NCBI GenBank assembly: GCA_019247495.1
Contig: JAFAOU010000132.1
Location: forward strand, 74,733 to 138,732
Direction of reading: 5' to 3'
Length of the DNA: 64,000 nucleotides
Source: Acidobacteriota bacterium
GTDB lineage: Bacteria; Acidobacteriota; Thermoanaerobaculia; Gp7-AA8
Below the pieces are notes generated by a model. It was not told where the DNA came from. It saw only the letters and a list, made by a program, of their open reading frames with translations, and did not search any database. Numbering within the stretch: position 1 is the first letter of the stretch; each line of letters begins with the position of its first letter. This document shows, in pieces, positions 10,001 to 25,970 of the stretch. Position numbers and translations under genes: made by a program.

Positions 10001-13000
10001 CGAGCCGCCACCGCTCATCGTGTGCGTGCCGGACGGAAAGGAAAGATTGCCTGGCGCCGTGACGGTGAAGGACCCGCCGTTGCTCGTGCCCCCGCCGCTC
10101 AGCGTAAGCGTGTTGCTGGTCTCGACCAGTCCGCTGTTGTTCAGCATCGCGCCGATGGCGATGCTCGCGTTGGCGTTGAGGGTCCCCTGATTGTTGATGG
10201 TGCCCGATCCGGTGACGTCTCCGCTCACGTTGAGCGTTCCGCCGTTCTGCAGCGTGCGGCTGGTGAGCGTGACCGGCGCGGAAATGCCGAGGGTCTTCGT
10301 CGCGGGATTGATCGTCGTCCCGCTGCCGCTCATCGTGCCGCCCGACCACGTGCCTCCGTTGTTCAGGGTCAGCGTGCCGCTGCCGCCGAGCGTGCCGCCG
10401 CTCATCGTGAACGCATCGGCTGACCCTGTTGCGTCGAGCGTTGCCGTCCCGGACGTGATGCTCAGGGTTGCAACGTTGATCGGGATTCCGACCGTGGCCG
10501 TAGCACCGTTGAACGACAGCGCCCCCGTACCGCTGATCGAGCCGCCGCCGGTCATGGAGTGCGTGCCCGCCGAGAAGGCAAGGGTGCCCGGCGTCATGGC
10601 GCTGAACGAGCCGCCGCTGTGCGTGCCGCCGCCGGCCAGATCGAGCGTGCCGATCCCGGCGTTCACCGTCCCGCCGCTGTTGTTCTCGACCGTCGGGAAG
10701 AGCGTGGTTGTGCCCGTGCCGGCGTTCTTGGTGATCACGCCGAAGTTCTCGATGACGGCGGTGCCGGAGAGGTTGATATTGCCGTCGATGGAGAGAGCGA
10801 ACGCGTTGTTGTTCGTGATCCTGCTGCCGCCGGACATCGTCAGAGCGCCTGTCCCGGCATTGGTGTAGATCATCATTCCGTTGTTGAGCAACTGGCGTGT
10901 TTGGGTAAGCGACTTCGCGACCACCCCGCCGATGTACATGTTGTTGCCGGGGTCGATCCGCGTCACGCCGCCCGGCGCGCTTGCGCTTCCCATGGTGCCG
11001 CCGTTCCAGAAGGTTGTGCCGGACAGGATCAACGTGCCGCCGCCATCGATGACGGCGCCGCCCCCCTGGATCGTCACGTTGGGGATAGTCATGGTGATGC
11101 TCGTCGGAACACGGAGCGCTCCGCCACTGACTGTGAAGTTGCCGCTCCCCGGCATCGAGACCGAGCCGGAATTGATGAGGAACACGCCGCCCGTGACTTC
11201 GAGGGTCGTACTCGGGGCGATGTCGAGGGTCGCGCCGGCGGCGACGCTCGCGCCGCCGCCGAACTGCAGGGTTCCCGAATCCAGATCGATCGTTGAAGTC
11301 CCTGAGATCGTCACTGGCACGCCGATGGTGCTCGTACCGGAAGTCGTTTTCTTCCAGATTGTGCCGTTGCTGATGATGGAACTGGCGGCGCCGCCGCCAT
11401 CGGTGAAGTCGCCGTCATTGGTGACGCTCAGCGTTTTGCCAGGGTCGATGGTCAGGCTCGCGCCGTTGGAAAGCACGAGCGGATTGCTCGAGGCAGTGAA
11501 GTTTGACGTGGCCTGAAGCTGGAGCGCGGCACCATCGAGCAGGCAGTTGCCAGCGGAACAACTGATGGTGGACATCGAAGTGCTGGTCAGCACTCTTGCT
11601 CCGCTGCCGGCGATCGTGCCGGCGGACCAGAGGAAAGCGCCACTCACCCGAACGTCGCCGGCGCCGGTGATCGTCCCTCCCGATTGGAGAGCGACATTGG
11701 GGCAGATGAGGTTGACGCCGGAGCCTGCGTCGAGCGTCGCGCCGGAGATGTCGAGGGTGCCGGTGCCGGTGACGGTAGCGGTGCTGGCAACTGTGAACGT
11801 GCCTCCCGCGAGGCGAAGGATGGCGGGGAAGATGATCGAGAAGGCGCCCGCGGCGATGCCGCCTCCGGAGAGAGCGATCGTGCCCATCGGGGCGCTCAGC
11901 GTCGCGCCGCTGTGGTTGTCGAGCGGCGGAGAGATCGTGCTCGTTCCCGTGCCGCCGCTCTTGGTGATGGTGCCGTTGTTGTCGATGAGCGCGCCGGCGG
12001 ATAGATTGATGTTGCCGTCCGCGGTGAGATTGAAGGCGTTGTTGTTGGTGATCTTGGCGTTGGCAGACATCGTCAGCGCATTCGAGGTCGTGCCGGCGTA
12101 GTTCAACGTCCCGTTGTTGATCAATTCACGGGATTGGGTGAGCGTTTGCGCGCCGCCGGCGGCGATGTTCAGGATGTCGACGCCGGAATTGATCTGCGTG
12201 ACGCCGCCGGGAGCGGTGGCGCTGCCCATCGTGCCGCCCGACCAGGTAGTGGTGCCGAAGAGGATGAGTGTTCCGCCGCCGTCGATGATGCCGGGCGCCT
12301 GCAGCGTCACGTTCTTGAGGACGATGGAGACACTGGTCGGGACGCGCAGCGTTCCGCTGGCGACCAGGAAACCGCCGGTCCCCGGCGTCGAGACTGGGCC
12401 GGAGTTGAAGAGAAACGCGCCGCCGTTGACTTCGAGTGTGGTTCCGGCGCCGGCGTCGAGGGTCGTGCCGGCGGCGACGCTCGCGCCGCGGGTGAACATC
12501 ACGGTCCCGGTGTTGATGGTCAGCGTCGAGGTCCCGGACATCGTGACCGGCACGTCGAGGATGCTGATGCCGGTCGTCCCGTTCTTCCGGATCGTGCCGT
12601 TGTTGATGATGGAGCCGCCCCCGACGCCGCCGAAGTCGCCGTCGCCGGTGATGGTGAGCGTCTTGCCCGGGTCGATGGTGATGCTGGCGCCGTTGGTGAG
12701 GTCGAATGAATTGTTCCCGGCGTTGTACGTCGTCGAGGCCTGAAGCTGAAGCGCGGCGGTGTCGAGCGTGCAGATGCTGCTGCACGTGATCGTCGGCGTG
12801 GAACTGCTGTTCATCACCCTGGGGCCGCTGCCAGCGACCCTCCCGCCGGTCCAGTTGAAATTGCCGCTCACGCGCAGAGTACCGGCTCCATCAATCTTCG
12901 AACTGGCGGCCGTGAGGTTCACATTTGGCCAGGTAACGTCCACGAGGTTGTCGAGAAGGAGCGTTCCGGCGGCGTTGAGCGTGCCGCTGACCCCGGCGTT

Positions 13001-14530
13001 GCCGGTTAGCTCAAGGGTGCCGCTGAGCGTGGTCGTGCCGTTGATGAAATGCCCGTTGGGGAGTGCCACCGTGCCTGCGCCGCTGATCGTGATGCCGCTG
13101 AACGTGCCGCCCTTGCTGAACGTAAGAGTGCCGGTGTCAGCGTGAATGGTGGAACCGCTGTTCGAGTCAACCGGGATGCTGATGGTCGTGATGCCGCTTC
13201 CGGCGCTCTTCGTTATCGTGCCCGTCCCGTTGGTGATCTTGGAGGTGTCGCCGGGGGGGGCGAGGATCACCAGGTTTCGGTCGGTCCGGAGGTCGATCGT
13301 ACCGTTGTTGGTGACGGTGATGTTGTTGAAGAGACCGTACTGATTGGCGATGTTGATATCGTTGGTGTAGATGATCTGGCCGCCGCTGTTGACGGTGGTA
13401 TTGATAGCGATGTTGGAGTGGTTGTCGGTGCCGTGACACTGCACCACGCCGCCGCTGTTGATGGTCATTGTCCCACTGCCGACGAGCGAGCCGCCGTAAT
13501 GCTCCAGGGTCGCCGATACCGAAAAGGTCGACGAAGTCGACAGGTTGGCGTCCCTTAGGGCCACCGTTCCCGAGGTGAAGGTCATCGGCGTGCTGCTCGT
13601 CCAGGAATCGGGGGAGCTGCCACCCGGGCCGTCACCGATGTTGACCGTCGCGCCGGCGATAGAGAGCGTGCCGCCCCCATTGGCCGTCGGACTGCCGGCG
13701 ATGGTGAACGTACCGCCTGTGAGAGCGATGAACGCTCCGGAGGAGATCGAGTGCGTGCCGCTGATCGTGCCGCCGTTGTTGAGCGTCAGCGTGCCCGACT
13801 GCGACTGGATCGTGCCGCCGGCGGCGTTGTCGACGGTGAAATTGATGGCTGCGCTGCCGCTGCCGAAACTCTTCTTGATCACGCCGCCGCTGTTGTTGGT
13901 AAGAACGGGCGTTCCTCCGTCGGCGAGGACGTCGTGGTCGGTTTGAATGTCGATGACACCGCTGTTGACGATGACGGCGCCGCCGCAGCCAAAGTGCTGG
14001 CCCGCCATGATCGTGTTAAGGAAATTGATGGTGCCGGAGTTGTAGGCGTTGCGGAGCAGGCGGGAGGAGTTGACCGTACCCCAGAACTGCAACAGGCCGC
14101 CGATGGGGATGATAAGGGGTCCGGGGCCGTCGAGCGTGCCTCCGTAAATATCGACCGTGCCATAGATGAACAGGGTTCCGGCGCCCTGGAAGTTCGAGCT
14201 GTTGAGCAGCAGCGTGCCGCCAACATCGACCACGCTCGAAGAGGACACCGAAAGAAACCGGCCCGTCTCGATCAGTACGATCGCGGAACCGTGGACAAAG
14301 ATACTGTGGACGGTCGCATTCATGTCGATCCGGACCGTTCCGGTGCCGACACTGGGGATGTCGACGTCGTCGGAGATGCCGGGCACCGCGTTCCCGCTCC
14401 AGTTGAGCGGATTGCTCCAAAACTCAGTACCGCCGCCGGCGGTGTAAGTCACGGTCGCGCCGAAAGCGGCAGGGAAACAGGCAACCATCGCCAACACAAA
14501 GACGGCGCGCACAACGACGCGAATGTTCAT
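4043..14530 (-). CDS. Giant (3,495 aa) secreted repeat protein, adhesin-like beta-helix plus Ig-like modules
   Basis: Signal-like MNIRVVVRAVFVLAMVACFPAAFGA. About 2,000 aa of G/T/S/N-rich GTLTL.NGGT.SGG repeats, reminiscent of autotransporter-associated beta-strand repeats. These are followed by DUF11/CARDB-like modules (LAVSVSTPPSVANGSAFAYTVNLINQGGSDA), four Cys-framed ~90-aa modules and C-terminal beta-sandwich repeats. No C-terminal barrel or sorting tail recognised. Confidence 0.9.
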   Translation of the reverse strand: MNIRVVVRAVFVLAMVACFPAAFGATVTYTAGGGTEFWSNPLNWSGNAVPGISDDVDIPSVGTGTVRIDMNATVHSIFVHGSAIVLIETGRFLSVSSSSVVDVGGTLLLNSSNFQGAGTLFIYGTVDIYGGTLDGPGPLIIPIGGLLQFWGTVNSSRLLRNAYNSGTINFLNTIMAGQHFGCGGAVIVNSGVIDIQTDHDVLADGGTPVLTNNSGGVIKKSFGSGSAAINFTVDNAAGGTIQSQSGTLTLNNGGTISGTHSISSGAFIALTGGTFTIAGSPTANGGGTLSIAGATVNIGDGPGGSSPDSWTSSTPMTFTSGTVALRDANLSTSSTFSVSATLEHYGGSLVGSGTMTINSGGVVQCHGTDNHSNIAINTTVNSGGQIIYTNDINIANQYGLFNNITVTNNGTIDLRTDRNLVILAPPGDTSKITNGTGTITKSAGSGITTISIPVDSNSGSTIHADTGTLTFSKGGTFSGITISGAGTVALPNGHFINGTTTLSGTLELTGNAGVSGTLNAAGTLLLDNLVDVTWPNVNLTAASSKIDGAGTLRVSGNFNWTGGRVAGSGPRVMNSSSTPTITCSSICTLDTAALQLQASTTYNAGNNSFDLTNGASITIDPGKTLTITGDGDFGGVGGGSIINNGTIRKNGTTGISILDVPVTMSGTSTLTINTGTVMFTRGASVAAGTTLDAGAGTTLEVNGGAFLFNSGPVSTPGTGGFLVASGTLRVPTSVSIVLKNVTLQAPGIIDGGGTLILFGTTTWSGGTMGSATAPGGVTQINSGVDILNIAAGGAQTLTQSRELINNGTLNYAGTTSNALTMSANAKITNNNAFNLTADGNINLSAGALIDNNGTITKSGGTGTSTISPPLDNHSGATLSAPMGTIALSGGGIAAGAFSIIFPAILRLAGGTFTVASTATVTGTGTLDISGATLDAGSGVNLICPNVALQSGGTITGAGDVRVSGAFLWSAGTIAGSGARVLTSTSMSTISCSAGNCLLDGAALQLQATSNFTASSNPLVLSNGASLTIDPGKTLSVTNDGDFTDGGGAASSIISNGTIWKKTTSGTSTIGVPVTISGTSTIDLDSGTLQFGGGASVAAGATLDIAPSTTLEVTGGVFLINSGSVSMPGSGNFTVSGGALRVPTSITMTIPNVTIQGGGAVIDGGGTLILSGTTFWNGGTMGSASAPGGVTRIDPGNNMYIGGVVAKSLTQTRQLLNNGMMIYTNAGTGALTMSGGSRITNNNAFALSIDGNINLSGTAVIENFGVITKNAGTGTTTLFPTVENNSGGTVNAGIGTLDLAGGGTHSGGSFSAMTPGTLAFSAGTHSMTGGGSISGTGALSFNGATATVGIPINVATLSITSGTATLDATGSADAFTMSGGTLGGSGTLTLNNGGTWSGGTMSGSGTTINPATKTLGISAPVTLTSRTLQNGGTLNVSGDVTGSGTINNQGTLNANASIAIGAMLNNSGLVETSNTLTLSGGGTSNGGSFTVTAPGNLSFPSGTHTMSGGGSISGTGTLTFGGAAATVGIPVNVSTLNMNAGTAMLNGNGSAGAFTMTGGTLGGSGTFTLTNGGTWSGGTMSGSGTTINPATKSLGISAPVTLNSTLQNDGTLNVNGNVAGSGTIANNGTLNTGANVTISPAVNNGGQVATSNALALSGGGTHSGSFTVTSPGNLSFTGGTHSVIGGGSIGGTGTLTFSGATATVSVPVNVGTLSVSGGTATLNASSSAGAFTMNGGTLGGSGTLTLTNGGTWSGGTMSGSGITANPAAMTFSIPGSVTLTGRTLQNNGTLNVSGAVIAGSGTIDNIGAVNDTVGATISAPMNNSGQVTTSALLSLGGGGTHSGTFTASNAASVIDFNGGGHTISGPFAGAGKFRFSGGTAALNNAWSGKLIDVAGGSVALNTSGTLAPLSLSGGTLTGSGNVTVSGPSTWSGGTIAGSGALTFGAGATVTMPGTNAATLARPLLNQGTINFTASSSAMLIDGVAITNSGTFDIQSAQNILVTPGTPPFINNGTLRKSAGAGVMQFAAPLANTSLVQVSAGTLNFGGTYTQSAGTTEVLPGATLQTVTLSLNGGSLAGNGTIAGTVDNHATVAPGASPGTLTISGDYVQESDGVLNIQLGGTTAGTQYDRLLVSGNVTLGGTLNVTTINSFVPAAGNTFQILTFGDRPNSTTFALIDGVDFGSGAMLIPTYSATDLQLIDTSVQADLAVSVSTPPSVANGSAFAYTVNLINQGGSDATAVSFNATLPPNVTFNSASPAICSGAPNLVCTLGALTNLSSAVVVLNVTANGAGAAPITVFAGGHEFDPNSANNSASVSPSITVSSDLRIAVTGPPGTVPGSRAIYTITVTNSGPDVANNVAVSVAPSSGLTFNANSGACAGSFPCTISALSSGQSATINSAWDISPTATGSVQLSVNAASSTADPNSSNNSASATTLIGTCPAIVIEAPSELRTGARAEATATAFGGAVYHWSISNGTIDSGDGTNIITFTAGDEGPATLAVNVTSGGCTLNAISSIKVTPRQTCEGTAEPSVPPDGTTTAGAVVTFIWSTVDGASGYRLWLQQGDAPPQSLGRTLDGSVTKVIPPGPHHWYVETLFDGCASHESKHLALTILPATDCATDEAPQLSAPANATASTSASVAFSWEAVAKAIGYELWLVPAGGTPTLIHAAPETSYTATVPPGPLEWYVRAIFGGCAATESAHRTFTYTPPPECTTQSPLLIAPAEGERLTSPLSFEWRSVPGATSYELYVDGVLKVTTTSPHAGGIALPLDERRWRVRARLAEGCGALDSVESSVVVIPALPSCTPLEPPAVTAPAQISSGVPGRIQWTFVGGATDYVIEISRDAQFSPGVTTTSTVTTRQLPFTLTNDGSVPAARYIRVHAVDTKCIPPGKGPFSPVSVVSVLPPNGSEGVALMSDPTDVPYTLSIGAELAGLSFTAVPTTSWITVTPASGVVPPGGLTLHAFAHTAGLPPGASTGRVVVTTAGAAGKVGTRGDPSTSTSITLNNLNGTTTQANSTPPPDALTIPAVANVQNFLVKFQSDVCITNTSAQEIEYEISFIPSGESGITKGLSFNTTIASGATLALNSIVKTWLDGLTSSGTLQIRPLTQIDTPAPSAPATGLAPRTTFASSRTFSVATTGGTFGQYVPVVPYANYVSSGKVISLQQIAQSDKFRTNLGLVEGSGEEVTIQVSIFDEAGTKLAGFNEDLTGGQYSQLNEVLKKHGIIALDDGRIEVKVVKGDGKITAYASVIGNDINNDALLVPPATIGGAGHSKWVVPSVTDRTGGSDNWHTDVRIFNSGKDEAALTLVFYPANGGTETIRTTTLAPGEVRQLNSVLPSVFGISQDTGALHVSSAAPAQLVVTARTYNNTGKATYGEFIPAVTLEETVSAGSRPLQILQVEESETYHSHIGFAEVSGKEVTLEVSVFLADLKAPALKPLEVKLAPNQFLQIDSLLFSKFGLTDTRNARISVSVKSGEGRATAYLSLVDKKSGDPTYIPAQ
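8950..10550 (-). repeat. Three in-frame tandem repeats of ~531-537 nt (~177-179 aa) inside the giant gene
   Basis: Anchor GCTCATCGTGCCGCCGGACCAGGTGCC (WSGGTMSG) occurs at 9260 and 9791, with a slightly diverged copy at 10328. The GGGSISGTG unit starts fall near 9481, 10011 and 10548. Confidence 0.85.
10670..13135 (-). repeat. Two in-frame tandem copies of a ~1,233-nt (~411 aa) segment inside the giant gene
   Basis: Shadow ORFs starting at 10881 and 12114 are collinear paralogues (offset 1,233 nt). At protein level ...DGAALQLQA..NGAS.TIDPGKTL..T.DGDF... recurs. Confidence 0.8.
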
Positions 14531-14578
14531 AGAGGGACCCGATTAGGAATTGCTGAATTATTACAATAGCACCGTTTC

Positions 14579-17107
14579 TTACTTCAACCTGTAAATCATT
14601 CGGACGCTCACCGTTCTCCCGTTCTGCAACACGCTTGGCAGTGACTCCGAACCGACCACCCGGTACTGCTTGTCGAACACGTTGTCGGCCAGGAGCTGCA
14701 CCGACAGCTTCGGCAGGAGGTCGCGATACGTCAGGGAGACGGCGGTCGTCGCGTACGCGTCAGGGCCAGGGTTGTCGGGAAATGTGACGAAGGCAGTCCC
14801 GCGGCCGATCTTGCGAGGACCGGAGTAATGCATCCGGATTGCTGCCGTCAGTTGCCGCCACTCCTCATCGACGCCGGCGTTGATCTGGTCCGAGGCGATG
14901 TTCGGTACGCGCACGGCCTCGGTGGCAGCGTTCGGGTCGGCCGCATTCGGATCGATCGCAGAGGGGATGCGCTGCTCCGGCTGCACGTGCGTGTAATTCG
15001 CCCAGATCTGCGCGGCCGCGATCTTGTGACGCGCCGTCAACTCCAGACCGCGCACGAGGATCTCGTCGCGATTCTGGTTTACCACGCACGGATTGGGGCA
15101 GGTTTTCGAGGAGGGAAGCCGCCTGATGGCGATGACGCCCGTGTAGTGAGCCCGGTAGGCGGCGAGCTGTACGGACGTTCGCTCGTCAGCCTCCCATCCG
15201 GCGCTGACCTCGGTATTGCGCACTCGTTCCGGACGCAGGTTGACATTGACGGACGTCTGAAACGCGCCGAAGCGGGGGAAGACGACGCCGCCGAATTTTT
15301 CGGTGTCGGTCGGATCCTTGAACGCTTCCGAATAAACCGCTTTCAGGACCAGCTGGCGGCGGCCCGGCGAATAGATCACTCCAAGCCGCGGCGTGAAGAT
15401 CGAGCCGAAGCCGGACACTTCGGTCTTCGTACTGTCGTCGATCTTGTTGTAGCTGAGCCGTCCCGCCGCGACGAATCGAAGCGATGGCCGCGGCTTCCAC
15501 GCACCTTGTCCCCACAGTGCCGTATCGGTGTGGAAATTACGAGAGGACACCACGGCCTGGGAACCGCCGGAGAATTGGTCGTATTGGCTTTGGATCGTGC
15601 TTTTCGCGAATTCGACGCCAGTCACTCCGCTCAGCGTCTCCGAAGGCTGCCAGGCCATGCTGACCTCACTGCGAATCTGGGTCGAAAGAGCCCTGCCGTT
15701 GACGGGGAAAAGGATCCCGGCCGTGGGCGGGCAAACCGCCGCGCCGCAGGTGCGGGGAAGGAGATTGCTCGAATCGAGGATGCCGTTGGCATAGATGGCC
15801 ATCAAATCGAACTCCGACGAATTTGGATCGATGCTCGATTGCCTGTAGCGCGTGAAAATATTCAGCGTTCCCATCGACAGCCGGGACGAATAGCGGAGGT
15901 AGAGCGCGGTCTCCTCCGGCGTGTACGTCGTGTTGCCGCCATAGGTCTGCGCGCCGTATGCGGAAGCGACGCCTTCCTGGCTTCGCCACGACTGCAGGCC
16001 GAGCGTCACATTCGAGATCTGGACCTTGGCGTTGACGCCCCAGTTCTTCGCCCGGTCGTTGAATCCGAGGTGGTTCTGCTGGATGAAGGCTTGATCGGTC
16101 TGGCGAGCGAGTAGCAGTCCCGCGGCATTGACGCCCTTCAGCGTCGGGAGCTTCCCATAGTCCAGATTGCGATACGTGTAGTCCCAGTCGTCGAACTTCG
16201 AAAGATCGCGTTCCTTGCCGTCCTGAAAACGGCCCGCGATTGACCACGCCACGGTGCCGCCGCCGGTGATGCCGGCTGCGGTCATGTCAGCGGCTGTGCT
16301 GCCGTAGCCGCCGGTAGTCACGTGTCCGGCGAGACCGAACGGTTTGTTCTCGAGGAACGCCCCGGCGTCTCTGGTGATGATGCTGATCACGCCCGTGTAG
16401 GCGTTCGCGCCGTACATCGTCGAGGCCGGCCCGTAGACGACCTCGACACGGTCGATGTTCGTGAGCGGATATTGCCGCGACAGATATTGCGTGCCCTGAG
16501 TCAGGTCGTTCTGCTCGACGCCGTCGATCAGTAGCAGAAGCCGGCTGTTGAATGCGTCGTAGTAGCCGCGCTGATAGACATGTGAGTAGATGTCGCCGTT
16601 CGTGCGATTGACGTCGAAGCCGGGAAGATCGTGAAGAAGTTGCTCGAGATCGAGGTAGCCGCGCCGTTCGATCTCGTCGCCCGTGACGACGACGACGGTT
16701 GCCGGTGCTTCGCGCAAACTCTCCGCGCTTTTCGACACCGACGTGACCTGCGCCGACTGTTCCTCGCGCCGCACCTCGGCCAGGAGCGCGGCGAAACGCG
16801 GCGAGCCTGTGGCGTCGTCGAAGCCCGGTTCGAGCCGCAGAAGCTTCGAGACTTCTTTCTTTGCTTCGTCCGGCCGCTCGGCGTACATCAGCGCGCGGGC
16901 CAGCAGCGATTGCACTTGAATGGCGACGGTGCGCGAGAGCCTGGCGCGAGCGCAATCCTGGCGCAGCAGGCTCGCGGTCTGCGCGAACTCCCCGATGTCG
17001 TACGACTTCTGCGCCTCCGCGAATGCTGCCGTGCAGGCGTTCTGCGCCGATGAGACCTGCGCGGCGAGGAGCAGGACGACGGCGGCAAAAATCGAGACGC
17101 GTCTCAT
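14579..17107 (-). CDS. TonB-dependent-receptor-like outer-membrane barrel with helical/TPR-like N-terminal extension
   Basis: Signal peptide MRRVSIFAAVVLLLAAQVSSAQ. Plug motifs VVVVTGDEIERRGY, LLIDGVEQND and IDRVEVVYGPASTMYGANAYTGVISIITR, then a long beta-rich C-terminus. The ATG at 17107 overlaps the upstream stop as ATGA. Confidence 0.8.
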   Translation of the reverse strand: MRRVSIFAAVVLLLAAQVSSAQNACTAAFAEAQKSYDIGEFAQTASLLRQDCARARLSRTVAIQVQSLLARALMYAERPDEAKKEVSKLLRLEPGFDDATGSPRFAALLAEVRREEQSAQVTSVSKSAESLREAPATVVVVTGDEIERRGYLDLEQLLHDLPGFDVNRTNGDIYSHVYQRGYYDAFNSRLLLLIDGVEQNDLTQGTQYLSRQYPLTNIDRVEVVYGPASTMYGANAYTGVISIITRDAGAFLENKPFGLAGHVTTGGYGSTAADMTAAGITGGGTVAWSIAGRFQDGKERDLSKFDDWDYTYRNLDYGKLPTLKGVNAAGLLLARQTDQAFIQQNHLGFNDRAKNWGVNAKVQISNVTLGLQSWRSQEGVASAYGAQTYGGNTTYTPEETALYLRYSSRLSMGTLNIFTRYRQSSIDPNSSEFDLMAIYANGILDSSNLLPRTCGAAVCPPTAGILFPVNGRALSTQIRSEVSMAWQPSETLSGVTGVEFAKSTIQSQYDQFSGGSQAVVSSRNFHTDTALWGQGAWKPRPSLRFVAAGRLSYNKIDDSTKTEVSGFGSIFTPRLGVIYSPGRRQLVLKAVYSEAFKDPTDTEKFGGVVFPRFGAFQTSVNVNLRPERVRNTEVSAGWEADERTSVQLAAYRAHYTGVIAIRRLPSSKTCPNPCVVNQNRDEILVRGLELTARHKIAAAQIWANYTHVQPEQRIPSAIDPNAADPNAATEAVRVPNIASDQINAGVDEEWRQLTAAIRMHYSGPRKIGRGTAFVTFPDNPGPDAYATTAVSLTYRDLLPKLSVQLLADNVFDKQYRVVGSESLPSVLQNGRTVSVRMIYRLK

Positions 17108-20100
17108 TTCAACCCCAGTCCCGGATCGGCGCATGGCGTCATCTCGCGGTACGGCTCATCCGTGTAACGGCTCCAGATTTCTTCGGTCATCGGATCCACT
17201 TTCGTGCGGCATAGGTGTGCGGCGAGAACGTCGGTGCGGGCGTCGGAGATGCGGATGGCCGGCTCTTTGCCGCCCGAGATGACACCGCTGCCGTCGGCGT
17301 TGAACGCGACCGCCCAGATCCATCCCTCCTGCCGCGCGATGACCTCCGGCAGTGCTTCCGGCTTGTCGATGTGCCACAAACGGATCGTTCCGTCGGCGCT
17401 GCCGGACGCGAAGACGTCGCCGCGCGGATTGAAGCTGAGCGAGTTGACGCTGGCGGTGTGGCCGGAGAACGTAACCTCTCTCCCCTGCCCCAGCGGCGAG
17501 CCGACGATGCGGCCGTCCGCTCTGCCGCACAGCAGCGCCGTCCCATCGGGCTTGAAGGCGAGGCTGCGAATGTCCTTCGCGTCGTTGCAAACGCTGCGCG
17601 GCTGCGCCTCGGGCTGGGCAACATTCCACAGCAACGCGCCCGAAGGTTGGCTTGCAGCGAGGGCCTTGCCGTCGGGACTGAACGCCACCGCGCGGACGCC
17701 GGTTTTGTTGTCGCCGGTGCGCAGCCGCGCCGGCGCACCCGGATGCGCGGTGTCCCACAGCGTGACCGTGCCGTCGAGATTTCCGGCGGCGAGCAGAGAG
17801 CCCGAAGGCTGAAACGCCAGCGACATCACCGCGCCGGTGCCGGTGGTGACCTGCCGCGGCGCGCTGCCGTTGCGCACGTCCCAGACCGAAACGCTGCCGC
17901 CGCCGGTGCCCGCCGCGAGCAGGTTGCCGCGCAGCGCCAGTGCGCGCACAGGCCCGGGCAATTGCGCGACCACCTTCGGCGGCAGCCATTGATTGCGGTC
18001 GTAATCGTGGCGGGAAATCAGCCCGCTCTCGTCGCCCGCGAAGATGGTGCGGCCGTCGGGCGATGCGGCGATCGCGAGCGCGCCATTTTTCTGCGGCAGC
18101 TTCTGGACCGTTTGCGACGCGTGGCGGCCGCCGACGGCGTGCAGCGCGGCGAAAAGCTCCGGGTCGTCCGGATCGCCGCCGTTCTCCCGATTCAGGCGAT
18201 ACGCTTCGAGGACGAGAGGGATGTCGACGCCGTGTGCTTCGCGCGCGGTCAACGCCAGCGCGCGCGATGCGGAAAGATGGCGCAACGTCGTCGCTTTCTT
18301 GCGTTGCTCCTCGGCCGTTTCCTTTTGCGCGACCGCTTCGCCGCGGGCAATCTCCGTTTTCCTGGTCTGGTCGCGGGCCTCGCGCTCGTTGGCCAGTGCT
18401 TTCTGTTGCTCGCTTTCCGCGCGGAGGCGCTCGCGTTCCGCGAGCTCGCTCTGCCGCTGCGCGATCTCCGTCTGCGTTTCGGCGCGGCTGCGCTGTTGTC
18501 GGGCGACGTCGCGCTCACGGTCGGCCGCGAAGCGCGCCTCCTCCGCTCGCCCCTTCTCGGTCTCAGCGCGCCGTTTCTCGGTCTGCGCGCGTTTCTGCGC
18601 TGCATCAACGCGATCGAGCTCTTCCTCAGCCACGCGCTCCAGGCGCTGCGCCTCCGTCTTCTGGCGGAACGCGGTGTATCCGAGACCCATCGTCGCCAGG
18701 AAGGCGACCGACAACACGGCGATGACGACGCGCGCCTGGCGCAGCGCGCGCCGGCGCCGCTGTTCTCGCTGCTGGATCTTTTCGTCGCGCTCATTCCGGC
18801 TGGCGTCGAGAAAGGCCATGGCCCTCGCGAACGACGGGTCGTGGCGCTCCGCCCATTCCGGCGTCGGCTGTTCCTCTTCGCGCCACGAGAGTGCGAACTG
18901 CAGCTCCGGATCGCGCCACAGCGCCGCTTTCCCCTCCTCATGCCGCTGCGCCGCCTCGGAGAGTTTGAGATAGAGCTGGGCGGCCTGCGCCTCGTCGTCG
19001 GCCCACTGCGACAGCCGTTCCCAGTTGCGCATCAGGCTTTCGTGCGAGATGTCGAGGATGGAGTTGTCGTTGAGCGGGACGTCCGCCGGCGGCATCAGGA
19101 ACGAACGCCCCTGCCGCCGGAAGCTGGCCGTGACGCGGGTGATCTCTTCCAGGCTGGCCTGCGTGAGCGCGCGGATCTCGCTGACCGGCGCCGGGCGCCT
19201 AACGCCGCGGGGGTCCGAGGCCTTGTCGGTCAGCGCTTTGAACATCTTCTCGGCAATGAATCGCCCGCGCTCGTCGAGCTCCCCGAAGGCCTCCTCGGCG
19301 TGACGCGACAACGCGTCGCGCAACGTGCCGATCTCTTCGTACTGCGAAAGATCGAGCCCTTCGCCGCGGTAGTGGAAAGACCGCCAGCGCTCCCAGGTCC
19401 GCATCAGCGCGTGCTGGAGGATGGGAAGCTGATCGGGATCGTCGCCGACGTCATTCAACAACCGCGACACCAGACGCGGCGCGATCGTCGCTCCGCCCAC
19501 AGCGACCGGTCCGGTGATGGCGAACCGCAGCTCCTCGCGCGTCATCCGCGGGACGAGATAGATCCCTTCGTTGACCACTTCCGGCAGCGTGCCGAACTCC
19601 ATGCAGTCGCCGATGAAGTCGGAGCGCATGGTGATGGCGACGTAGATGGGGATTTCGGTTTCGCGCGCGGCCAGCAGAAGTTTGACGAAGGCCGCCGCTT
19701 CGTCCCCGCCATCGGGGCCGCGGCTGAATTTGTAGCGGAAGATCTCCTCGAATTGGTCGACCAGTAAGAGGACGTTGTCCGCGGCGCCGATCTGCGACTG
19801 GCGGACGCACTCGACCAGGCCGAGGCGGCTGGCGCGCAGCGTCGTTTCAAAAAGAGCGCGGGTCAGCTTCTCGTCGGCGCCGCCGCCGAGAGCGTCGGAA
19901 GCAGTGAGCGCTGCTGCGAGATTGCCGATCGGATTTTCGCCCGGCCTCATCGTCGCCACGCGCCACCGGGAGCCCGCGCGCGTCATCGCCCCGCCGTGAA
20001 GGCTGGGGATCAGACCTGAGCGCACCAGCGACGACTTGCCACTTCCGGAGCGGCCGAGAACGGAGAGGAATCGCGTGCTGCGCAGCCTTCGCAGGAGCTC

Positions 20101-20241
20101 GTCGGTCTGCCGCTCGCGTCCGAAGAAGAGATAGTCCTCGTCGGGTTCGAACGGGCGCAATCCAGGAAATGGATTGACCTCCGCCGTCGGATCGAGAGCG
20201 ATCACGATGCCGGAGCTGCTGCTTTTGCGATCGCTGCTCAT
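17104..20241 (-). CDS. STAND-class P-loop NTPase with single TM helix, long coiled coil and C-terminal WD40 propeller
   Basis: NPFPGLRPFEPDEDYLFFGRERQTDELLRRL, Walker A GRSGSGKSS and Walker B LLLVDQFEEIF. RRRRALRQAR precedes the TM VVIAVLSVAFLATMGLGYTAF. Then an E/R/Q/A-rich coiled coil and WD40 repeats (GHTASVNSLSFNPRGDVFASGSADGTIRLWHI). The start ATG at 20241 overlaps the TIR stop (ATGA). Confidence 0.85.
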   Translation of the reverse strand: MSSDRKSSSSGIVIALDPTAEVNPFPGLRPFEPDEDYLFFGRERQTDELLRRLRSTRFLSVLGRSGSGKSSLVRSGLIPSLHGGAMTRAGSRWRVATMRPGENPIGNLAAALTASDALGGGADEKLTRALFETTLRASRLGLVECVRQSQIGAADNVLLLVDQFEEIFRYKFSRGPDGGDEAAAFVKLLLAARETEIPIYVAITMRSDFIGDCMEFGTLPEVVNEGIYLVPRMTREELRFAITGPVAVGGATIAPRLVSRLLNDVGDDPDQLPILQHALMRTWERWRSFHYRGEGLDLSQYEEIGTLRDALSRHAEEAFGELDERGRFIAEKMFKALTDKASDPRGVRRPAPVSEIRALTQASLEEITRVTASFRRQGRSFLMPPADVPLNDNSILDISHESLMRNWERLSQWADDEAQAAQLYLKLSEAAQRHEEGKAALWRDPELQFALSWREEEQPTPEWAERHDPSFARAMAFLDASRNERDEKIQQREQRRRRALRQARVVIAVLSVAFLATMGLGYTAFRQKTEAQRLERVAEEELDRVDAAQKRAQTEKRRAETEKGRAEEARFAADRERDVARQQRSRAETQTEIAQRQSELAERERLRAESEQQKALANEREARDQTRKTEIARGEAVAQKETAEEQRKKATTLRHLSASRALALTAREAHGVDIPLVLEAYRLNRENGGDPDDPELFAALHAVGGRHASQTVQKLPQKNGALAIAASPDGRTIFAGDESGLISRHDYDRNQWLPPKVVAQLPGPVRALALRGNLLAAGTGGGSVSVWDVRNGSAPRQVTTGTGAVMSLAFQPSGSLLAAGNLDGTVTLWDTAHPGAPARLRTGDNKTGVRAVAFSPDGKALAASQPSGALLWNVAQPEAQPRSVCNDAKDIRSLAFKPDGTALLCGRADGRIVGSPLGQGREVTFSGHTASVNSLSFNPRGDVFASGSADGTIRLWHIDKPEALPEVIARQEGWIWAVAFNADGSGVISGGKEPAIRISDARTDVLAAHLCRTKVDPMTEEIWSRYTDEPYREMTPCADPGLGLK

Positions 20242-21737
20242 GATCCCGATTCCCGCCCCTTCGCGATCGCGTCCAGCAGCGGCGCGAGCACCGATGGATC
20301 GAACCCGCCGGCCGGCTCGCGGATCAGCATCGCCTCGTGTGTGCGAAAGCGATCTTTCTGCGCCGTGGCCGGTGCGCCGGCGTAAATGCCGCGCGCGTAC
20401 AACGGCCGCTCGCGCCCGAGCGCCGCGCTCTTTTGCAGCTCGCGCAACTTCCGCCGCAGCCACAGCTCATCGCCGGCGCCGTAGTAGAGAAGGATCACGT
20501 CCGCCGAGCGGAGGTTTTCCTCGTGCTCCAGCCGCGCCTGCGCTTCATCGTCGTCGAAGACCGGAAGGACGACTTCGAAGCCTTCGCTGAACAGGTAATC
20601 TTCGAGAGGCTGCGCCGCGGTGACGTCCTGCTGATCGCAGAGGAGGTACAGCCGCGGATGCTCCTGCTCCGCGGGCACAGCAGCCGCCTTCACAACGACG
20701 GCCGGCGGCGGCGTGAGCTTTCGGTAAATGAATGCCTTCAGCTCCTCGATCGGAACTTCCAGCAACTCCGCCGTGGCGTGTACCAACGGATTGGTCTGCA
20801 GACTGTGGACGAACGTGCGCTGCCGCTCGTCTTCGATCTGCACTCCCGGCCGAAGCCAGATGATGCTCGACAGCGCGCTGCCCGGCGCGGCCTCCGAGGC
20901 CAGCACCTGTTGCCGTTCCACGATGGAGACCCGCGCGCCCTCGGGCACGATGCCGTAGTTCAGTCCGACCAGATGGATCGAGACGTTGCTTCGCTCGAGC
21001 TGTTCGCGAACGATGGCATCCAGCTCCGGACCGACGAGCGGCAGCGCGCGATCCGGGAGGACTTCGTAGCCGTTGCGGACCAGGTCGCGCTTGATGGCCT
21101 CGCGCTCCTCGCGCAACTCGAAGCTCGTCTCCGCGAGAAAGAGCGTTCCCTTCGACGCGCCAGGCGCGGACGCGCCAGGCACGACGCTGGCCGTCTCGCT
21201 TTCAATCAGGTCGAGAAGCTGCGCGATGTCGAAGGCGAGGTCGTCGAGCTTCGTCAGGAAGGTGCGCTCCTTCCCGAAATCCTGCGACAGCTCCCGCGGC
21301 CGGCCGGCCTCGTCATAAACGAAGAATTCATAGCCGAGCATCGGCTGTACTTCCTCGGGAAGCCGCTCCTGGCTGACCGGCGTCTTCACCACTTTGAAGA
21401 TGCGGGCCTTATCGCCGATGCGCGTGCCGCCGGAGCGCTCTGCGAGGCGGGAGAACTCTTTCAACTCCCGGTTGCACCACTCCGACTGCACGTAACGCGG
21501 CGAGAGCACCGACACCAGCGCGGCAATCCGCGGAAGGCGCTCGAGGATGGTGTCGGCAAAGATGTCGTTGCCCTGCAACTTCTGATCGCGCCAGATCTTC
21601 GGCTTCTGTCCCCGCACCTGTCCGACACGGATCTCCAGGAGCCTATGCAGCTCCGAAATCCAGCCCTGCTCACCAGGGACTAACGCTTCGTTGTCCAGAT
21701 GAGCATAGCTAATCAGGAAGTCGTGCTCGAATTGCAT
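20238..21737 (-). CDS. TIR-domain protein with two further TIR-like/flavodoxin-like modules
   Basis: N-terminal HDFLISYAHLDNE...ALVSVLSPRYVQSEWCNRELKEF, the classic bacterial TIR pattern including the catalytic-Glu context. Downstream modules are LFLAETSFELREEREAIKRDLVRNGYEVL... and LYLLCDQQDVTAAQPLEDYLFSEGFEVVLPVFDDD... Confidence 0.85.
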   Translation of the reverse strand: MQFEHDFLISYAHLDNEALVPGEQGWISELHRLLEIRVGQVRGQKPKIWRDQKLQGNDIFADTILERLPRIAALVSVLSPRYVQSEWCNRELKEFSRLAERSGGTRIGDKARIFKVVKTPVSQERLPEEVQPMLGYEFFVYDEAGRPRELSQDFGKERTFLTKLDDLAFDIAQLLDLIESETASVVPGASAPGASKGTLFLAETSFELREEREAIKRDLVRNGYEVLPDRALPLVGPELDAIVREQLERSNVSIHLVGLNYGIVPEGARVSIVERQQVLASEAAPGSALSSIIWLRPGVQIEDERQRTFVHSLQTNPLVHATAELLEVPIEELKAFIYRKLTPPPAVVVKAAAVPAEQEHPRLYLLCDQQDVTAAQPLEDYLFSEGFEVVLPVFDDDEAQARLEHEENLRSADVILLYYGAGDELWLRRKLRELQKSAALGRERPLYARGIYAGAPATAQKDRFRTHEAMLIREPAGGFDPSVLAPLLDAIAKGRESGS

Positions 21738-23930: not shown

Positions 23931-25040
23931 TCATTTCATTGTAAGCGGCAGGGGTCCATCGCCGTTGAAAAAAGGCGCGAGGTAAATCCCGTGCCGCGCG
24001 GCGATCATCTCGATTTCCTCGACGAGCTTCGGCGTGATTGCACCCCTTCCGCGGGAGAAGGACTCGAACCTTCCTTCCAGCGTCAGAGCGATGCCTTCCA
24101 GCAGACATCCGTGAGCGACATCGGGGAACGGATGATGGTTCAGGATTCCACGAAGATCGGGGTCGAACGTCAATCCGCCCGTGATCTGTCCAAGCCCTCC
24201 GAAAAAAACGGTGGCCCGGGAGGTCTCTGCATCGGGGGAGAGGTTCTTGGGGTAGCCGGCATCGCAAACGAGGGCGTCGGCCGCGATGTTGTCCAGCAAA
24301 AGGGATGGCGACGGGAGACTGGCCGCGCAGATCGCGAGATCGGCTTGCTCGGAGAATTGCGCGAGGTCCGTTCCGATCTCGATCTCGACGCCTTCGCCTT
24401 CGAGTTCTACCGCCAGCCGGCGAAGCCGCTCGACATTGCGCGCGACGAGTTGCACACGTCTCACCTTCCCTGCCAGGCAACGGACGCAGCCCGAACCGAC
24501 GTCTCCGGTTGCCCCGACCACGAGCAGCGTCGATTGCCAAAGGTTCCGCCCCTGCAGCGCGCACATCTTCTCGATGCCCTGAACGATGAACGCGACCGTC
24601 AGCGTATTGCCGGTGGTGAAGACCGTGGCGCGTCCGGGCGGGAGCTGATCGAACTTCCCCTCCAAGAGAATGGAGCTGAATCCGCCGAGGCTGACGATGC
24701 GGGCTCCTGCCTTGATTGCGTACGCCGCGGCAGCACGAACCCGCGTCAGGTTCTCCTGCACACAGCCGGCATCCAAGCGGTCAGGAGGAATGAACGAGTC
24801 GATGTAAAGGCCATGCGCCTCGGCAGCAGCAATCGACTTCACCGCCACGCGGCAGACGGCACGGGGCGGAATCCACGGAAGGATGTCCCTGATCTCATCG
24901 TCCGGCAGCGGCGTCTGCTCCGGTCCGCGCAGAGCCGAGAAGACGTCCGCCGCTGCGCTCCAACTCTCCGGATGTCCGACCAGGGCGAAATCGACTTGCG
25001 GCGCAGCCGATGGCGCTATACCGGCAACTGTGCAATCCAT
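23931..25040 (-). CDS. Acyl-ACP reductase (cyanobacterial AAR)-like NAD(P)H-dependent reductase
   Basis: Collinear with remembered cyanobacterial AAR: VGHPESW (cf. IGHLTS), SLGGFSSILLEG, FTTGNTLT, the VVGATGDVGS Rossmann loop, CDAGYPKN, HGCLLEGIALTLEGRF (catalytic Cys context) and ITPKLVEEIEMIAARHG. Start set at ATG 25040. Confidence 0.75.
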   Translation of the reverse strand: MDCTVAGIAPSAAPQVDFALVGHPESWSAAADVFSALRGPEQTPLPDDEIRDILPWIPPRAVCRVAVKSIAAAEAHGLYIDSFIPPDRLDAGCVQENLTRVRAAAAYAIKAGARIVSLGGFSSILLEGKFDQLPPGRATVFTTGNTLTVAFIVQGIEKMCALQGRNLWQSTLLVVGATGDVGSGCVRCLAGKVRRVQLVARNVERLRRLAVELEGEGVEIEIGTDLAQFSEQADLAICAASLPSPSLLLDNIAADALVCDAGYPKNLSPDAETSRATVFFGGLGQITGGLTFDPDLRGILNHHPFPDVAHGCLLEGIALTLEGRFESFSRGRGAITPKLVEEIEMIAARHGIYLAPFFNGDGPLPLTMK

Positions 25041-25925: not shown

Positions 25926-25970
25926 ACAAGGTTTTTCACAGCCGGACGCACCGCGAGCAGCTCGCGCACG

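Follow-up and report, generated by a model that had tools for sequence, protein, structure and literature searches.

The window, a 64,000-nucleotide stretch of contig JAFAOU010000132.1 from an Acidobacteriota bacterium, carries a cluster of genes for a TIR-family protein, a membrane-anchored STAND NTPase and an outer-membrane barrel protein that is conserved across several phyla and apparently undescribed; no earlier description of a TIR-STAND-barrel cluster was found in the literature. The reading we prefer, to which we give an even chance, is an outside-in, envelope-spanning STAND signaling module with a TIR-family output. A preliminary description had taken the unit to be the two genes at 17104-21737, which was not borne out: the stop codon of the STAND gene overlaps the start of gene 3, so the unit reaches beyond these coordinates. 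At least three genes make up the functional unit, with the barrel gene coupled by ATGA downstream of the STAND gene and, in this lineage, a giant surface protein encoded next.

20238..21737, minus strand: gene 1, a 499-aa cytoplasmic protein with three tandem TIR-like (beta-alpha)5 domains (ORF, Pfam, AlphaFold2 and Foldseek)
20238..20241, minus strand: ATGA overlap of the gene 1 stop and gene 2 start, GGGATCATGAGC
17104..20241, minus strand: gene 2, a 1,045-aa inner-membrane-anchored nSTAND1 STAND NTPase with a predicted periplasmic stalk and WD40 propeller
17104..17107, minus strand: ATGA overlap of the gene 2 stop (17106-17104) and gene 3 start (17107), TTGAAATGAGACGC
14579..17107, minus strand: gene 3, an 842-aa TonB-dependent-receptor-like outer-membrane protein with signal peptide, N-terminal helical domain, Plug and barrel
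4043..14530, minus strand: gene 4, a possible part of the unit, a 3,495-aa secreted/surface protein (ORF, Pfam DUF11)

The first overlap had already been claimed and could be read directly in the sequence; the offset between genes 2 and 3 is identical in related loci L001-L003. As originally described, gene 1 opens with a canonical TIR domain: residues 9-105 match Pfam TIR_2 at 41.5 bits (cut-off 28), and SPRYVQSEWCNRELKEF aligns with the alpha-C motif of the RUN1 and TLR (TLR1) TIRs, which puts E91 in the place of the catalytic Glu. Three (beta-alpha)5 domains are seen in the AlphaFold2 model (mean pLDDT 84.5), and Foldseek searches with it return the TIR structures of SARM1, RUN1, RPP1, SPARTA and MyD88.

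21186..21725, minus strand: domain 1 (residues 5-184), a canonical TIR with S85, W87 and catalytic-position E91
20715..21146, minus strand: domain 2 (residues 198-341), DUF4062-type TIR-like, motif S271-x-V-E274-x-Q276
20244..20654, minus strand: domain 3 (residues 362-498), a third TIR/flavodoxin-like domain, from AlphaFold2 secondary structure and conservation

S85, W87 and E91 are invariant across 71 Acidobacteriota homologues of gene 1. Over the cross-phylum set, 31 of 62 family sequences have the domain 1 Glu; Cytophagales and Bacteroidales have a degenerate motif and are the main lineages in which the catalytic Glu is missing or shifted; because this affects about half of the set, NAD+ cleavage is not a universal output. 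Two further modules had been noted in the protein, and their TIR-like folds hold in the model, but the second is of DUF4062 type with a probable Gln, and the third carries a Lys, where the Glu would be. Residues 200-276 score 22.3 bits against Pfam DUF4062, slightly below the cut-off of 24.7, and the same family matches 51 of the 68 proteins encoded upstream of STAND genes. Domain 2 is the best-conserved region of the protein (S271 94%, E/D274 81%, Q276 92%). In it, F200 and Q276 lie 76 residues apart, the distance reported between F11 and E87 in Eva01, so Q276 probably sits at the canonical DUF4062 position and Gln probably replaces the catalytic Glu; 57 of 62 family members have Gln there. 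Domain 3 has no match in Pfam; W426 is invariant, and K430 stands where a TIR would have Glu. Judged by these motifs, only domain 1 looks like a competent NADase. TIR and DUF4062 domains are NADases activated by oligomerization (10.64898/2026.05.01.722283).

Gene 2, whose length of 1,045 aa takes the ATG at 20241, is a P-loop switch that lacks an N-terminal effector domain.

18931..20172, minus strand: nSTAND1 NTPase module (residues 24-437), Pfam PF20703, E 3e-98
18667..18729, minus strand: single transmembrane helix (residues ~505-525), predicted N-in/C-out, Kyte-Doolittle 2.0
18112..18666, minus strand: charged helical stalk (residues 526-710), AlphaFold2, moderate pLDDT
17227..18084, minus strand: WD40 beta-propeller (residues ~720-1005, about seven blades), Pfam, AlphaFold2 and Foldseek
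17107..17226, minus strand: C-terminal tail with cysteine pair C1011 and C1037, motif C..R..T..EW..Y....C

The earlier call of a STAND P-loop NTPase is upheld by the nSTAND1 match and by the Walker A GRSGSGKSS, Walker B LLLVDQFEE and conserved LQHAL His, with G63, G66, G68, K69, S70, D162-E166 and H277 as invariant columns. The only hydrophobic segment lies after RRRRALRQAR and recurs in all 79 STAND homologues as an uncharged stretch of ~23 aa, fixed in position and variable in sequence. Its 15-aa flanks hold a mean of 6.8 K+R on the N side versus 3.5 on the C side, the N flank being richer in 75/79 and poorer in 0/79, in agreement with the N-in orientation first proposed. The helical stalk and WD40 propeller were likewise recovered. 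The AlphaFold2 model, of moderate confidence (pLDDT 68), shows a single unbroken helix over 471-668 and more helices up to 710; the ~143 helical residues past the membrane would make a stalk ~21 nm long, which is periplasm-scale. Pfam WD40 repeats and beta-propeller families match at ~708-1024, and the modeled propeller strands span 723-989, with the final blades at low confidence. The best Foldseek match of the propeller is the PkwA WD40 domain (31% identity), and the model aligns along full-length Apaf-1. The tail cysteines are kept in 44 of 58 WD40-size homologues, 20 of which have no other Cys after the transmembrane helix; we infer that they form a disulfide and hence that the compartment is oxidizing. 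Together with the K/R bias and the sensor/barrel co-variation described below, this pair supports the extracytoplasmic propeller that had been suggested, and the stalk and propeller are predicted to lie in the periplasm.

Residues 131-240 of the gene 3 protein match Pfam Plug (E 1e-21), and in an alignment of the large downstream proteins (the window plus 11 loci) the Plug is present in 12/12 and the TonB-dependent-receptor barrel in 7/12. The Plug is preceded by a further domain.

16733..17044, minus strand: gene 3 N-terminal domain (residues 22-125), helical/TPR-like, with C25 and C52 invariant

This domain, which matches no Pfam family, STN included, is probably periplasmic and disulfide-bonded. 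An HMM built from it matches 38 of 39 small barrel proteins adjoining WD40-type STANDs and 0/9 Terriglobia barrels, and the domain is also found on small barrels without a Plug. Among 1.84 billion representatives it finds 46 matches, nearly all N-terminal in proteins of ~840-900 aa or in fragments. Gene 4 begins 48 nt past gene 3 and encodes a signal peptide, G/T/S-rich repeats and DUF11/CLIPPER domains; a giant protein gene likewise lies downstream at the Thermoanaerobaculia orthologue loci L001 and L002. In 21-26 Bacteroidota loci a nonhomologous T9SS-tailed giant occupies an analogous position, three genes downstream of the STAND gene, and the giant gene is absent from Terriglobia, Blastocatellia and cyanobacterial loci.

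To place the cluster in its family, we compared 79 related loci from Acidobacteriota, Bacteroidota, Cyanobacteria and Proteobacteria, with genes taken as simple ORF calls and many contigs derived from MAGs. In 64/79 loci the STAND gene is immediately preceded by a TIR/DUF4062 gene, at a median gap of 2.5 nt and with the exact 4-nt overlap in 17, and in about 59 it is directly followed by a barrel gene; in 14 there is no downstream barrel gene despite sequence room. The triad of TIR-family gene, STAND gene with helix and barrel gene spans at least three phyla, and look-ups anchored on the TIR gene lead to nSTAND1 and then a barrel gene in 5/5. The separate, translationally coupled TIR partner noted in the preliminary description is thus a recurring arrangement, and the pair is more than chance because pair, overlap and transmembrane segment recur in orthologues and across the 79 loci. 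TPR-type STANDs pair with a MetA-like barrel in 9/9 loci and WD40-type STANDs with an N-domain barrel in 45, with 0 crossed combinations, a co-variation confounded by phylogeny because every TPR-type locus is Acidobacteriota. SpoIIE/HAMP phosphatases precede the STAND and barrel pair in 10 loci, sometimes directly, in place of the TIR gene, and STAS and RsbW-like kinase genes do so on a Runella plasmid. Among the other neighbors are, in Bacteroidota, a HEAT protein whose cNMP-binding match is sub-threshold and, in Terriglobia, Guanylate_cyc proteins.

We propose that an outer-membrane or cell-surface event would be relayed through the gene 3 N-terminal domain to the propeller, possibly with participation of the giant surface protein in the Thermoanaerobaculia lineage, and that a change in the propeller would reach the NTPase by way of the stalk and transmembrane helix. 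The NTPase would then exchange nucleotide, oligomerize on the cytoplasmic side of the inner membrane and cluster the TIR-family partner, whose TIR domain would cleave NAD+, leading to NAD+ depletion or to a signaling nucleotide; domains 2 and 3 of gene 1 may be noncatalytic modules for assembly or ligand binding. The trigger may be adsorption of a phage, cell-cell contact, damage to the envelope or a surface ligand.

The conflict or defense label first attached to the locus is unestablished. PADLOC finds no named defense system, no defense genes were seen near the locus, no copies occurred in the viral contigs searched, and the TIR gene is replaced in some lineages. Judged by sequence identity in close orthologues, the propeller is conserved as much as the NTPase (88/85/74% versus 92/90/83%), and the sensor is not hypervariable. 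The PADLOC and viral-contig results, the replacement of the TIR gene and this high, even conservation lend some weight to a possible though less probable account, in which the barrel and STAND protein inform regulators in the cytoplasm about a nutrient, a polymer or the state of the envelope in non-immune surface signaling, and the TIR-family protein is an adaptor, ligand sensor or producer of a regulatory nucleotide and not a suicide NADase. The 42-60% identity of the NTPase between phyla, the SpoIIE/HAMP and STAS/RsbW-like genes before the STAND and barrel pair, the HEAT/cNMP-binding and Guanylate_cyc neighbors, the degenerate TIR Glu of many lineages and the order of N-terminal extension, Plug and barrel, which is a TonB-dependent transducer layout, point the same way. 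Against it, the catalytic motif is intact in the protein from the window and in each of the 71 Acidobacteriota homologues, every bacterial TIR/DUF4062 enzyme characterized so far serves immunity or virulence, and the window operon has no sigma/anti-sigma factor or DNA-binding output.

The giants encoded after the barrel gene in Thermoanaerobaculia, and the unrelated T9SS-tailed ones in Bacteroidota, would suit a machine for assembly, anchoring or quality control, in which the STAND ATPase and barrel help to export or tether the 3,495-aa protein; we regard this as improbable, since the Terriglobia, Blastocatellia and cyanobacterial loci have no giant gene, STAND NTPases are switches and not translocases, and the TIR-family partner is left with no role. 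Least probable of all, and very unlikely in our estimation, is an antiviral STAND of the conventional, cytoplasmic Avs-like kind, with the hydrophobic segment as a buried helix and a propeller that senses a phage protein in the cytoplasm. The STAND, WD40 and TIR content does recall Apaf-1, NLR and Avs logic; however, the universal, uncharged segment at a fixed position with its strong positive-inside bias, the cysteine pair conserved after the propeller, the coupling of the STAND gene to an outer-membrane protein gene, the lack of a PADLOC Avs model match and the absence of sensor hypervariability all argue against it.

Like eukaryotic Apaf-1, NWD1 and TEP1 and bacterial Avs and bNACHT, the envelope-spanning module places a sensor of WD40 or TPR repeats after a P-loop STAND switch and includes an effector domain of the death or immunity type (TIR or DUF4062); TEP1 and NWD1 join DUF4062, NACHT and WD40 (10.64898/2026.05.01.722283). 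The module differs from them in that its effector is encoded by a gene of its own, its NTPase is of the nSTAND1 clade and neither NACHT nor NB-ARC, a helix parts the switch from a sensor predicted to be extracytoplasmic and not hypervariable, an outer-membrane partner gene is present and no PADLOC model matches. The NTPase family PF20703 is shared with the nSTAND1-centered conflict systems of Kaur, Iyer, Burroughs and Aravind, and those papers list TIR among the effector domains (eLife 2021 PMC8195603; eLife 2020 PMC7159879). In the systems described there, however, an N-terminal effector/adaptor (EAD, Death-like) is fused or paired with the NTPase, and the portions of text searched mention no post-NTPase helix, periplasmic sensor or outer-membrane barrel partner. 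Domain 2 of gene 1 belongs to the family of the single-gene antiphage NADases Swarozyc and Evangelion, yet it has the Gln described above, is flanked by two other TIR-like domains, has no portal-binding auxiliary domain and is encoded outside a defense island.

PorE (PG1058), described as a multidomain component of the Porphyromonas type IX secretion system (T9SS), is a precedent for a WD40-type propeller that acts in the periplasm of a diderm bacterium (PMC5053529), the location predicted for the gene 2 propeller. To our knowledge, PorE has no NTPase or TIR link. Toll-like receptors offer a functional analogy only, with extracytoplasmic repeats, one helix and a cytoplasmic TIR output; their LRR ectodomain is not homologous to the WD40 propeller, and in the present module a STAND NTPase stands between the helix and a TIR that is on its own polypeptide. 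In TonB-dependent transducers of the FecA-FecR-FecI type, an outer-membrane Plug/barrel protein with an extra periplasmic N-terminal domain before the Plug works with a single-pass inner-membrane partner, encoded by a neighboring gene, whose C-terminal domain is periplasmic and N-terminal domain cytoplasmic. Gene 3, with its N-terminal extension, Plug and barrel, and gene 2, predicted to be single-pass and N-in/C-out, resemble this pair, but the extension, helical and with a Cys pair, does not match Pfam STN and also occurs on small barrels without a Plug, and the module has a STAND NTPase in place of the anti-sigma factor and a TIR-family output in place of the ECF sigma factor.

The whole account rests on genome comparison, plain ORF calling and predicted structures, which together place the TIR and STAND genes of the window in a cluster of four genes:

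21737..20238, minus strand: gene 1, TIR-family protein (ORF, 499 aa)
ATG at 20241, end at 17104, minus strand: gene 2, STAND protein (ORF, 1,045 aa)
Start at 17107, minus strand: gene 3, outer-membrane barrel protein (842 aa; signal peptide, 104-aa N-terminal domain, Plug and barrel)
4043-14530, minus strand: gene 4, giant secreted protein (3,495 aa), beginning 48 bases past gene 3

The junction of genes 1 and 2 reads GGGATCATGAGC, with the TGA of the former overlapping the ATG of the latter, and the STAND stop (17106-17104) shares a second ATGA overlap, TTGAAATGAGACGC, with the start of gene 3 (17107). The preliminary description had proposed a two-gene unit coupled by the first of these overlaps; the pair and its coupling are borne out, but the unit was drawn too short, since gene 3 is coupled downstream by ATGA. 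Gene 4 has a signal peptide, DUF11/CLIPPER domains, long internal repeats rich in G/T/S and a C-terminal region that is distinct. Two orthologous contigs from Thermoanaerobaculia (L001 and L002) carry the same four genes with order and overlaps identical to the window, encode TIR proteins 87% and 79% identical to gene 1, and differ from each other in upstream context. A promoter and terminator scan of window positions 3500-23000 returned nothing above shuffle expectation.

Immediately upstream of the TIR gene (21878-23921, minus strand) are genes for a GntR-family regulator, an ABC ATPase and a 270-aa membrane protein, probably an unrelated neighboring operon because this trio is present near the L001 cluster and absent near that of L002. 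Further upstream, a 263-aa protein (25807..25016, minus strand) matches the long-chain aldehyde decarbonylase family Ald_deCOase of Pfam above cut-off (E 8e-15) and adjoins a 421-aa Rossmann protein (Shikimate_DH-like); the pair spans 23931-25807 on the minus strand, recurs in L001, and resembles, in a Thermoanaerobaculia genome, the alkane-synthesis gene pair of cyanobacteria. Repetitive ORFs on the two strands stem from a 21-nt tandem repeat at 25966-26159, which has ~9 copies of the consensus CTGTGTATCGGCCTGTGCGCG with 76-83% matches.

Relatives were collected by scanning an NTPase alignment against one genome per species; at least 596 were confirmed and the best 80 of these were kept, and neighbor genes were defined in 79 loci by our own ORF analysis and BLAST clustering. 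Among the best 80 of at least 596, the Acidobacteriota side comprises Thermoanaerobaculia, Terriglobia, Blastocatellia and Vicinamibacterales; many others are Bacteroidota (Cytophagales, Chitinophagaceae, Bacteroidales and Flammeovirgaceae), alongside Cyanobacteria, one Methylocella bin and one bin labeled only Proteobacteria, and NTPase identity to the window is 42-60% across these phyla. In the 79 loci (from the same best 80 of at least 596), 64 have a same-strand gene 1 homolog directly upstream of the STAND gene, and 50 have a barrel gene directly downstream, to which a second barrel cluster adds 9; median intergenic distances are 2.5 nt (TIR-STAND) and 6 nt (STAND-barrel). Pfam searches within this best 80 of at least 596 returned DUF4062 in 51 (E <= 0.01, best 1e-9) and TIR_2 in 41 of 68 upstream proteins, OMP_b-brl_2 in 32 of 47 small downstream proteins, and Plug in all 12 and a TBDR barrel in 7 of the 12 large downstream proteins. 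Reverse look-up from five TIR-protein homologs led, in 5/5 contigs, to an nSTAND1 gene and then a barrel gene downstream. The pairing of TIR and STAND genes therefore holds whether approached from the STAND side or from the TIR side, and chance adjacency of unrelated genes is ruled out by the conserved order and the overlaps. On plasmids, the closest matches (38-40% identical) reside on Cytophagales megaplasmids, and matches at roughly 30% (Streptomyces, cyanobacteria) belong to other nSTAND1 clades.

Gene 1 is a member of the TIR family. Pfam assigns TIR_2 to residues 9-105 (41.5 bits, cut-off 28) and DUF4062, reportedly renamed NIR in one 2026 preprint, to residues 200-276 at 22.3 bits, slightly below its cut-off of 24.7. 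An AlphaFold2 model built from 71 homologs (mean pLDDT 84.5) contains three successive (beta-alpha)5 domains (residues 5-184, 198-341 and 362-498), with linkers modeled at low confidence between them. Foldseek of this model against the PDB, which was run on whole models and so leaves the matching domain unspecified, returned TIR domains of SARM1, RUN1, RPP1, SPARTA and MyD88 at probability 1.00; a PDB sequence search gave weak TIR matches only and no DUF4062 structure. Each residue of the domain 1 motif SPRYVQSEWCNRELKEF has its counterpart in the TLR1 and RUN1 alpha-C motif (S-x-W-C-x-x-E), so that E91 falls on the catalytic glutamate of RUN1, and S85, W87 and E91 are invariant among 71 Acidobacteriota homologs. 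The canonical TIR domain with its catalytic-Glu context and the two further TIR-like modules read earlier from the sequence are thus both present. Identification with FxsC, a TIR-like protein of the FxSxx-COOH system, was dropped: NCBIfam gave an FxsC_Nterm match below threshold only (NF040588, 49.8 bits; cut-off 130).

Across phyla, the domain 1 glutamate is kept in 31 of 62 gene 1 homologs, and the motif is degenerate in the Cytophagales and Bacteroidales relatives. The best-conserved part of the protein is domain 2, with the motif LSIHLxG..YG..PEG...S-[IV]-V-[ED]-x-Q-N (S271 94%, E/D274 81%, Q276 92%). DUF4062 enzymes share a conserved catalytic Glu (Eva01 E87, KpSwz E97, TEP1 E1008). The distance from F200 to Q276 in gene 1 is 76 residues, the same as that from F11 to the catalytic E87 in Eva01 (Evangelion preprint), so the canonical glutamate is probably replaced by glutamine in the gene 1 family; by motif spacing, this position is Gln in 57 and Glu in 4 of 62 homologs, and an acidic residue stands two positions before the putative site in 81%. 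In domain 3, W426 is invariant and K430 occupies the TIR Glu position. Given Q276 in domain 2 and K430 in domain 3, domain 1 is the only one of the three with the look of a competent NADase. In the assay of Osinski et al., no activity was seen for the DUF4062 domains of NWD1, NWD2 and NPHP3, a precedent for noncatalytic copies in a STAND context. The cluster thus offers natural cases of DUF4062- and TIR-like domains in which catalysis has probably been lost while strong selection persists, and these are relevant to the inactive domains of the three human proteins.

Gene 2 belongs to the nSTAND1 family (PF20703, residues 24-437, 330.3 bits, cut-off 27.1, E 3e-98), and its Walker A (GRSGSGKSS), Walker B (LLLVDQFEE) and winged-helix-His (LQHAL) motifs are invariant across 18 and 44 homologs. 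The NTPase begins after only ~22 residues, a separate gene encodes the effector, and WD40/beta-propeller families of Pfam cover ~708 to 1024. The only strongly hydrophobic stretch in genes 1 and 2 is at STAND residues ~505-525, directly after RRRRALRQAR, so that the NTPase, membrane helix and propeller match the preliminary description. A single hydrophobic segment just past the NTPase (~425-590) is found in 79/79 STAND proteins from the best 80 of at least 596 relatives, where the uncharged segment averages 23 residues and the 15 flanking residues contain on average 6.8 Lys+Arg before vs 3.5 after it; the N-side count exceeds the C-side count in 75/79 and is lower in none. Because the segment is universal in this set and carries this charge bias, the alternative that it is not a membrane helix was ruled out. 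The NTPase of gene 2 lacks a signal peptide and depends on cytoplasmic nucleotide; the C-terminal half of the protein should therefore lie outside. Beyond the propeller, a C..R..T..EW..Y....C motif (C1011 and C1037 in the window) recurs in 44/58 WD40-size homologs, in 20 of which the pair represents the sole cysteines across the ~500 residues C-terminal to the membrane helix; a conserved and isolated pair of this kind suggests a disulfide and hence an oxidizing compartment. An N-in helix with the sensor beyond the membrane is thus strongly supported, and the extracytoplasmic propeller proposed from the sequence stands.

In the AlphaFold2 model of the STAND protein (pLDDT 68), a single continuous helix (471-668) crosses the membrane segment, further helices extend to 710, and the propeller has about seven blades, the final ones at low confidence. 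The ~143 helical residues past the membrane would span roughly 21 nm in this model, a length on the scale of the periplasm. Foldseek ranks highest the WD40 domain of PkwA (31% identity) and Apaf-1 over its full length, the latter an exception in a list dominated by WD40 matches.

The outer-membrane partner, gene 3, has a Plug at residues 131-240 (Pfam, E 1e-21) preceded by a conserved 104-aa N-terminal domain (residues 22-125) with two invariant cysteines. A single-sequence search with this domain gave 46 matches and is too insensitive to indicate family size; an HMM built from the N-terminal domain of the large TBDR-type barrels matched 38 of 39 small barrels adjoining WD40-type STANDs, and none of nine Terriglobia barrels (Phenol_MetA_deg-like). 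Sensor and barrel classes co-vary without exception among the compared loci (best 80 of at least 596): TPR-type STANDs pair with MetA-like barrels in 9/9, WD40-type STANDs pair with barrels bearing the N-terminal domain in 45, and crossed combinations number zero. This is as physical contact would predict, and it is supportive of propeller-barrel contact rather than decisive, because sensor and barrel classes track taxonomy. The TonB box of TonB-dependent receptors sits just ahead of the Plug; in gene 3, an invariant V-T-S-V-S-K-x-x-E (APATVVVVTGDEI; window 16700-16740, minus strand; barrel residues ~118-135) directly precedes the Plug and is by analogy a candidate TonB box. In Bacteroidota versions of the operon, the third gene downstream of STAND encodes unrelated giant proteins with T9SS C-terminal sorting domains.

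We propose that an outer-membrane or surface event would be sensed by the barrel and handed on by its N-terminal domain to the propeller, from which the stalk and membrane helix would carry the signal to the NTPase. The NTPase would then oligomerize and cluster the TIR-family partner, which in the window's lineage may cleave NAD+. Gene order, overlaps, domain make-up and conservation are observed directly; the contacts of this relay, its direction, the enzyme activity and the trigger are all inferred. Two readings of the same anatomy have to be weighed. In one, the cluster would be a bacterial "outside-in" NLR, whose extracytoplasmic, barrel-plugged sensor detects a surface event before entry and sets off, on the far side of the inner membrane, a response in which the TIR-family protein cleaves NAD+; we advance it tentatively, at odds well short of even. 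In the other, the main rival, it is a regulatory cell-surface signaling system and not an immune one, a reading that we also regard as possible but somewhat doubtful. For an immune or cell-death role speak the strict conservation of the TIR catalytic motif in the window's lineage, the depletion of NAD+ by TIR and DUF4062 enzymes upon oligomerization (10.64898/2026.05.01.722283), and the definition of nSTAND1 in surveys of conflict systems (PMC8195603; PMC7159879). Against a typical defense system stand several observations. PADLOC-DB v2 found no named system and no Avs or NLR model for either protein, its matches being a WD40-driven HEAT-ARM_XIII and a marginal mad8 only; the window offers no defense-island or mobile-element context, the neighbors being instead the GntR regulator, the ABC transporter and the alkane-type genes; and the 2.9 million viral contigs of IMG/VR hold no relatives. 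In close orthologs, conservation of the propeller (88, 85 and 74% identity) is close to that of the NTPase (92, 90 and 83%), with nothing to suggest a sensor in an arms race. The candidate defense module of the preliminary description keeps its intact TIR motif, and lacks a PADLOC system, defense neighbors, viral relatives and a diversifying propeller.

The partner genes add to the evidence against a typical defense system, being swappable and accompanied by accessory genes. A SpoIIE/HAMP PP2C phosphatase occurs in ten Bacteroidales-type loci (best 80 of at least 596), in some of which the TIR gene is replaced. On the Runella rosea plasmid NZ_CP030852.1 (L083; 8015-14794), genes for a STAS anti-sigma antagonist and an RsbW-like ATP-binding kinase lie directly upstream of a STAND/TonB-dependent-receptor pair, listed in RefSeq under the names "hypothetical protein" and "TonB-dependent receptor". 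Partner-switching genes upstream, replacing or adding to the TIR gene, are found in this locus and in L006, L023, L027, L037, L047-L049, L058 and L076, which suggests, on gene content, that the cytoplasmic outputs of the STAND/barrel pair are interchangeable. Bacteroidota operons also carry a HEAT protein, a 416-aa protein of no known family and a giant T9SS-tailed protein. The HEAT-repeat protein (~1,050 aa, with a sub-threshold C-terminal cNMP-binding match) is encoded in a Bacteroidota locus (L015, 5250-8405) and about 40 others, mostly 2-3 genes upstream of STAND and, in Chitinophagaceae-type loci, downstream of the barrel; TPR plus Guanylate_cyc proteins adjoin Terriglobia operons (L084, 4519-6873; L085, 12885-15383). 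These accessory genes hint at a link to cyclic-nucleotide signaling. If the "outside-in" NLR is nevertheless real, the events detected would be phage adsorption, neighbor-cell contact or envelope breach, with the giant surface protein also engaged in some lineages, and the cluster, conserved across several hundred diderm species, would in function be the prokaryotic counterpart of a Toll-like receptor whose logic is merged with that of an NLR.

To our knowledge, every STAND/NLR-like immune sensor characterized in prokaryotes monitors the cytoplasm, as do eukaryotic NLRs; extracellular sensing is the task of other receptor classes. A widely conserved periplasmic-sensor STAND, genetically coupled to a barrel and a TIR protein, would show that a STAND switch can signal across a membrane, would offer a testable route from surface events of diderms to the cytoplasm, and would put on record a large gene cluster, so far without a name, in Acidobacteriota and Bacteroidota, two abundant phyla in which much of the gene content is unexplored. 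In the searched text of the Aravind-group surveys, of the 2026 Nature STAND survey and of two DUF4062 preprints, no STAND is described that is anchored in the membrane, senses in the periplasm and has a partner in the outer membrane; keyword literature searches likewise gave no account of this operon, an absence that is not proof of novelty. In Avs and bNACHT systems, the effector is fused to the NTPase and the sensor is cytoplasmic; the cluster falls outside them because its effector is separate, its sensor is placed past an N-in membrane helix and no model matched. Like TonB-dependent transducers, gene 3 has an N-terminal extension before the Plug and TBDR barrel, in which Pfam finds no STN-type domain. 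FecA/FecR signaling employs anti-sigma and ECF-sigma genes, whereas the barrel of the window adjoins STAND and TIR genes instead, and for want of both the STN domain and the sigma/anti-sigma pair the cluster lies outside that system too. In its workings it joins an NLR/Apaf-1-type switch to an arrangement across the envelope like that of TonB-dependent transducers.
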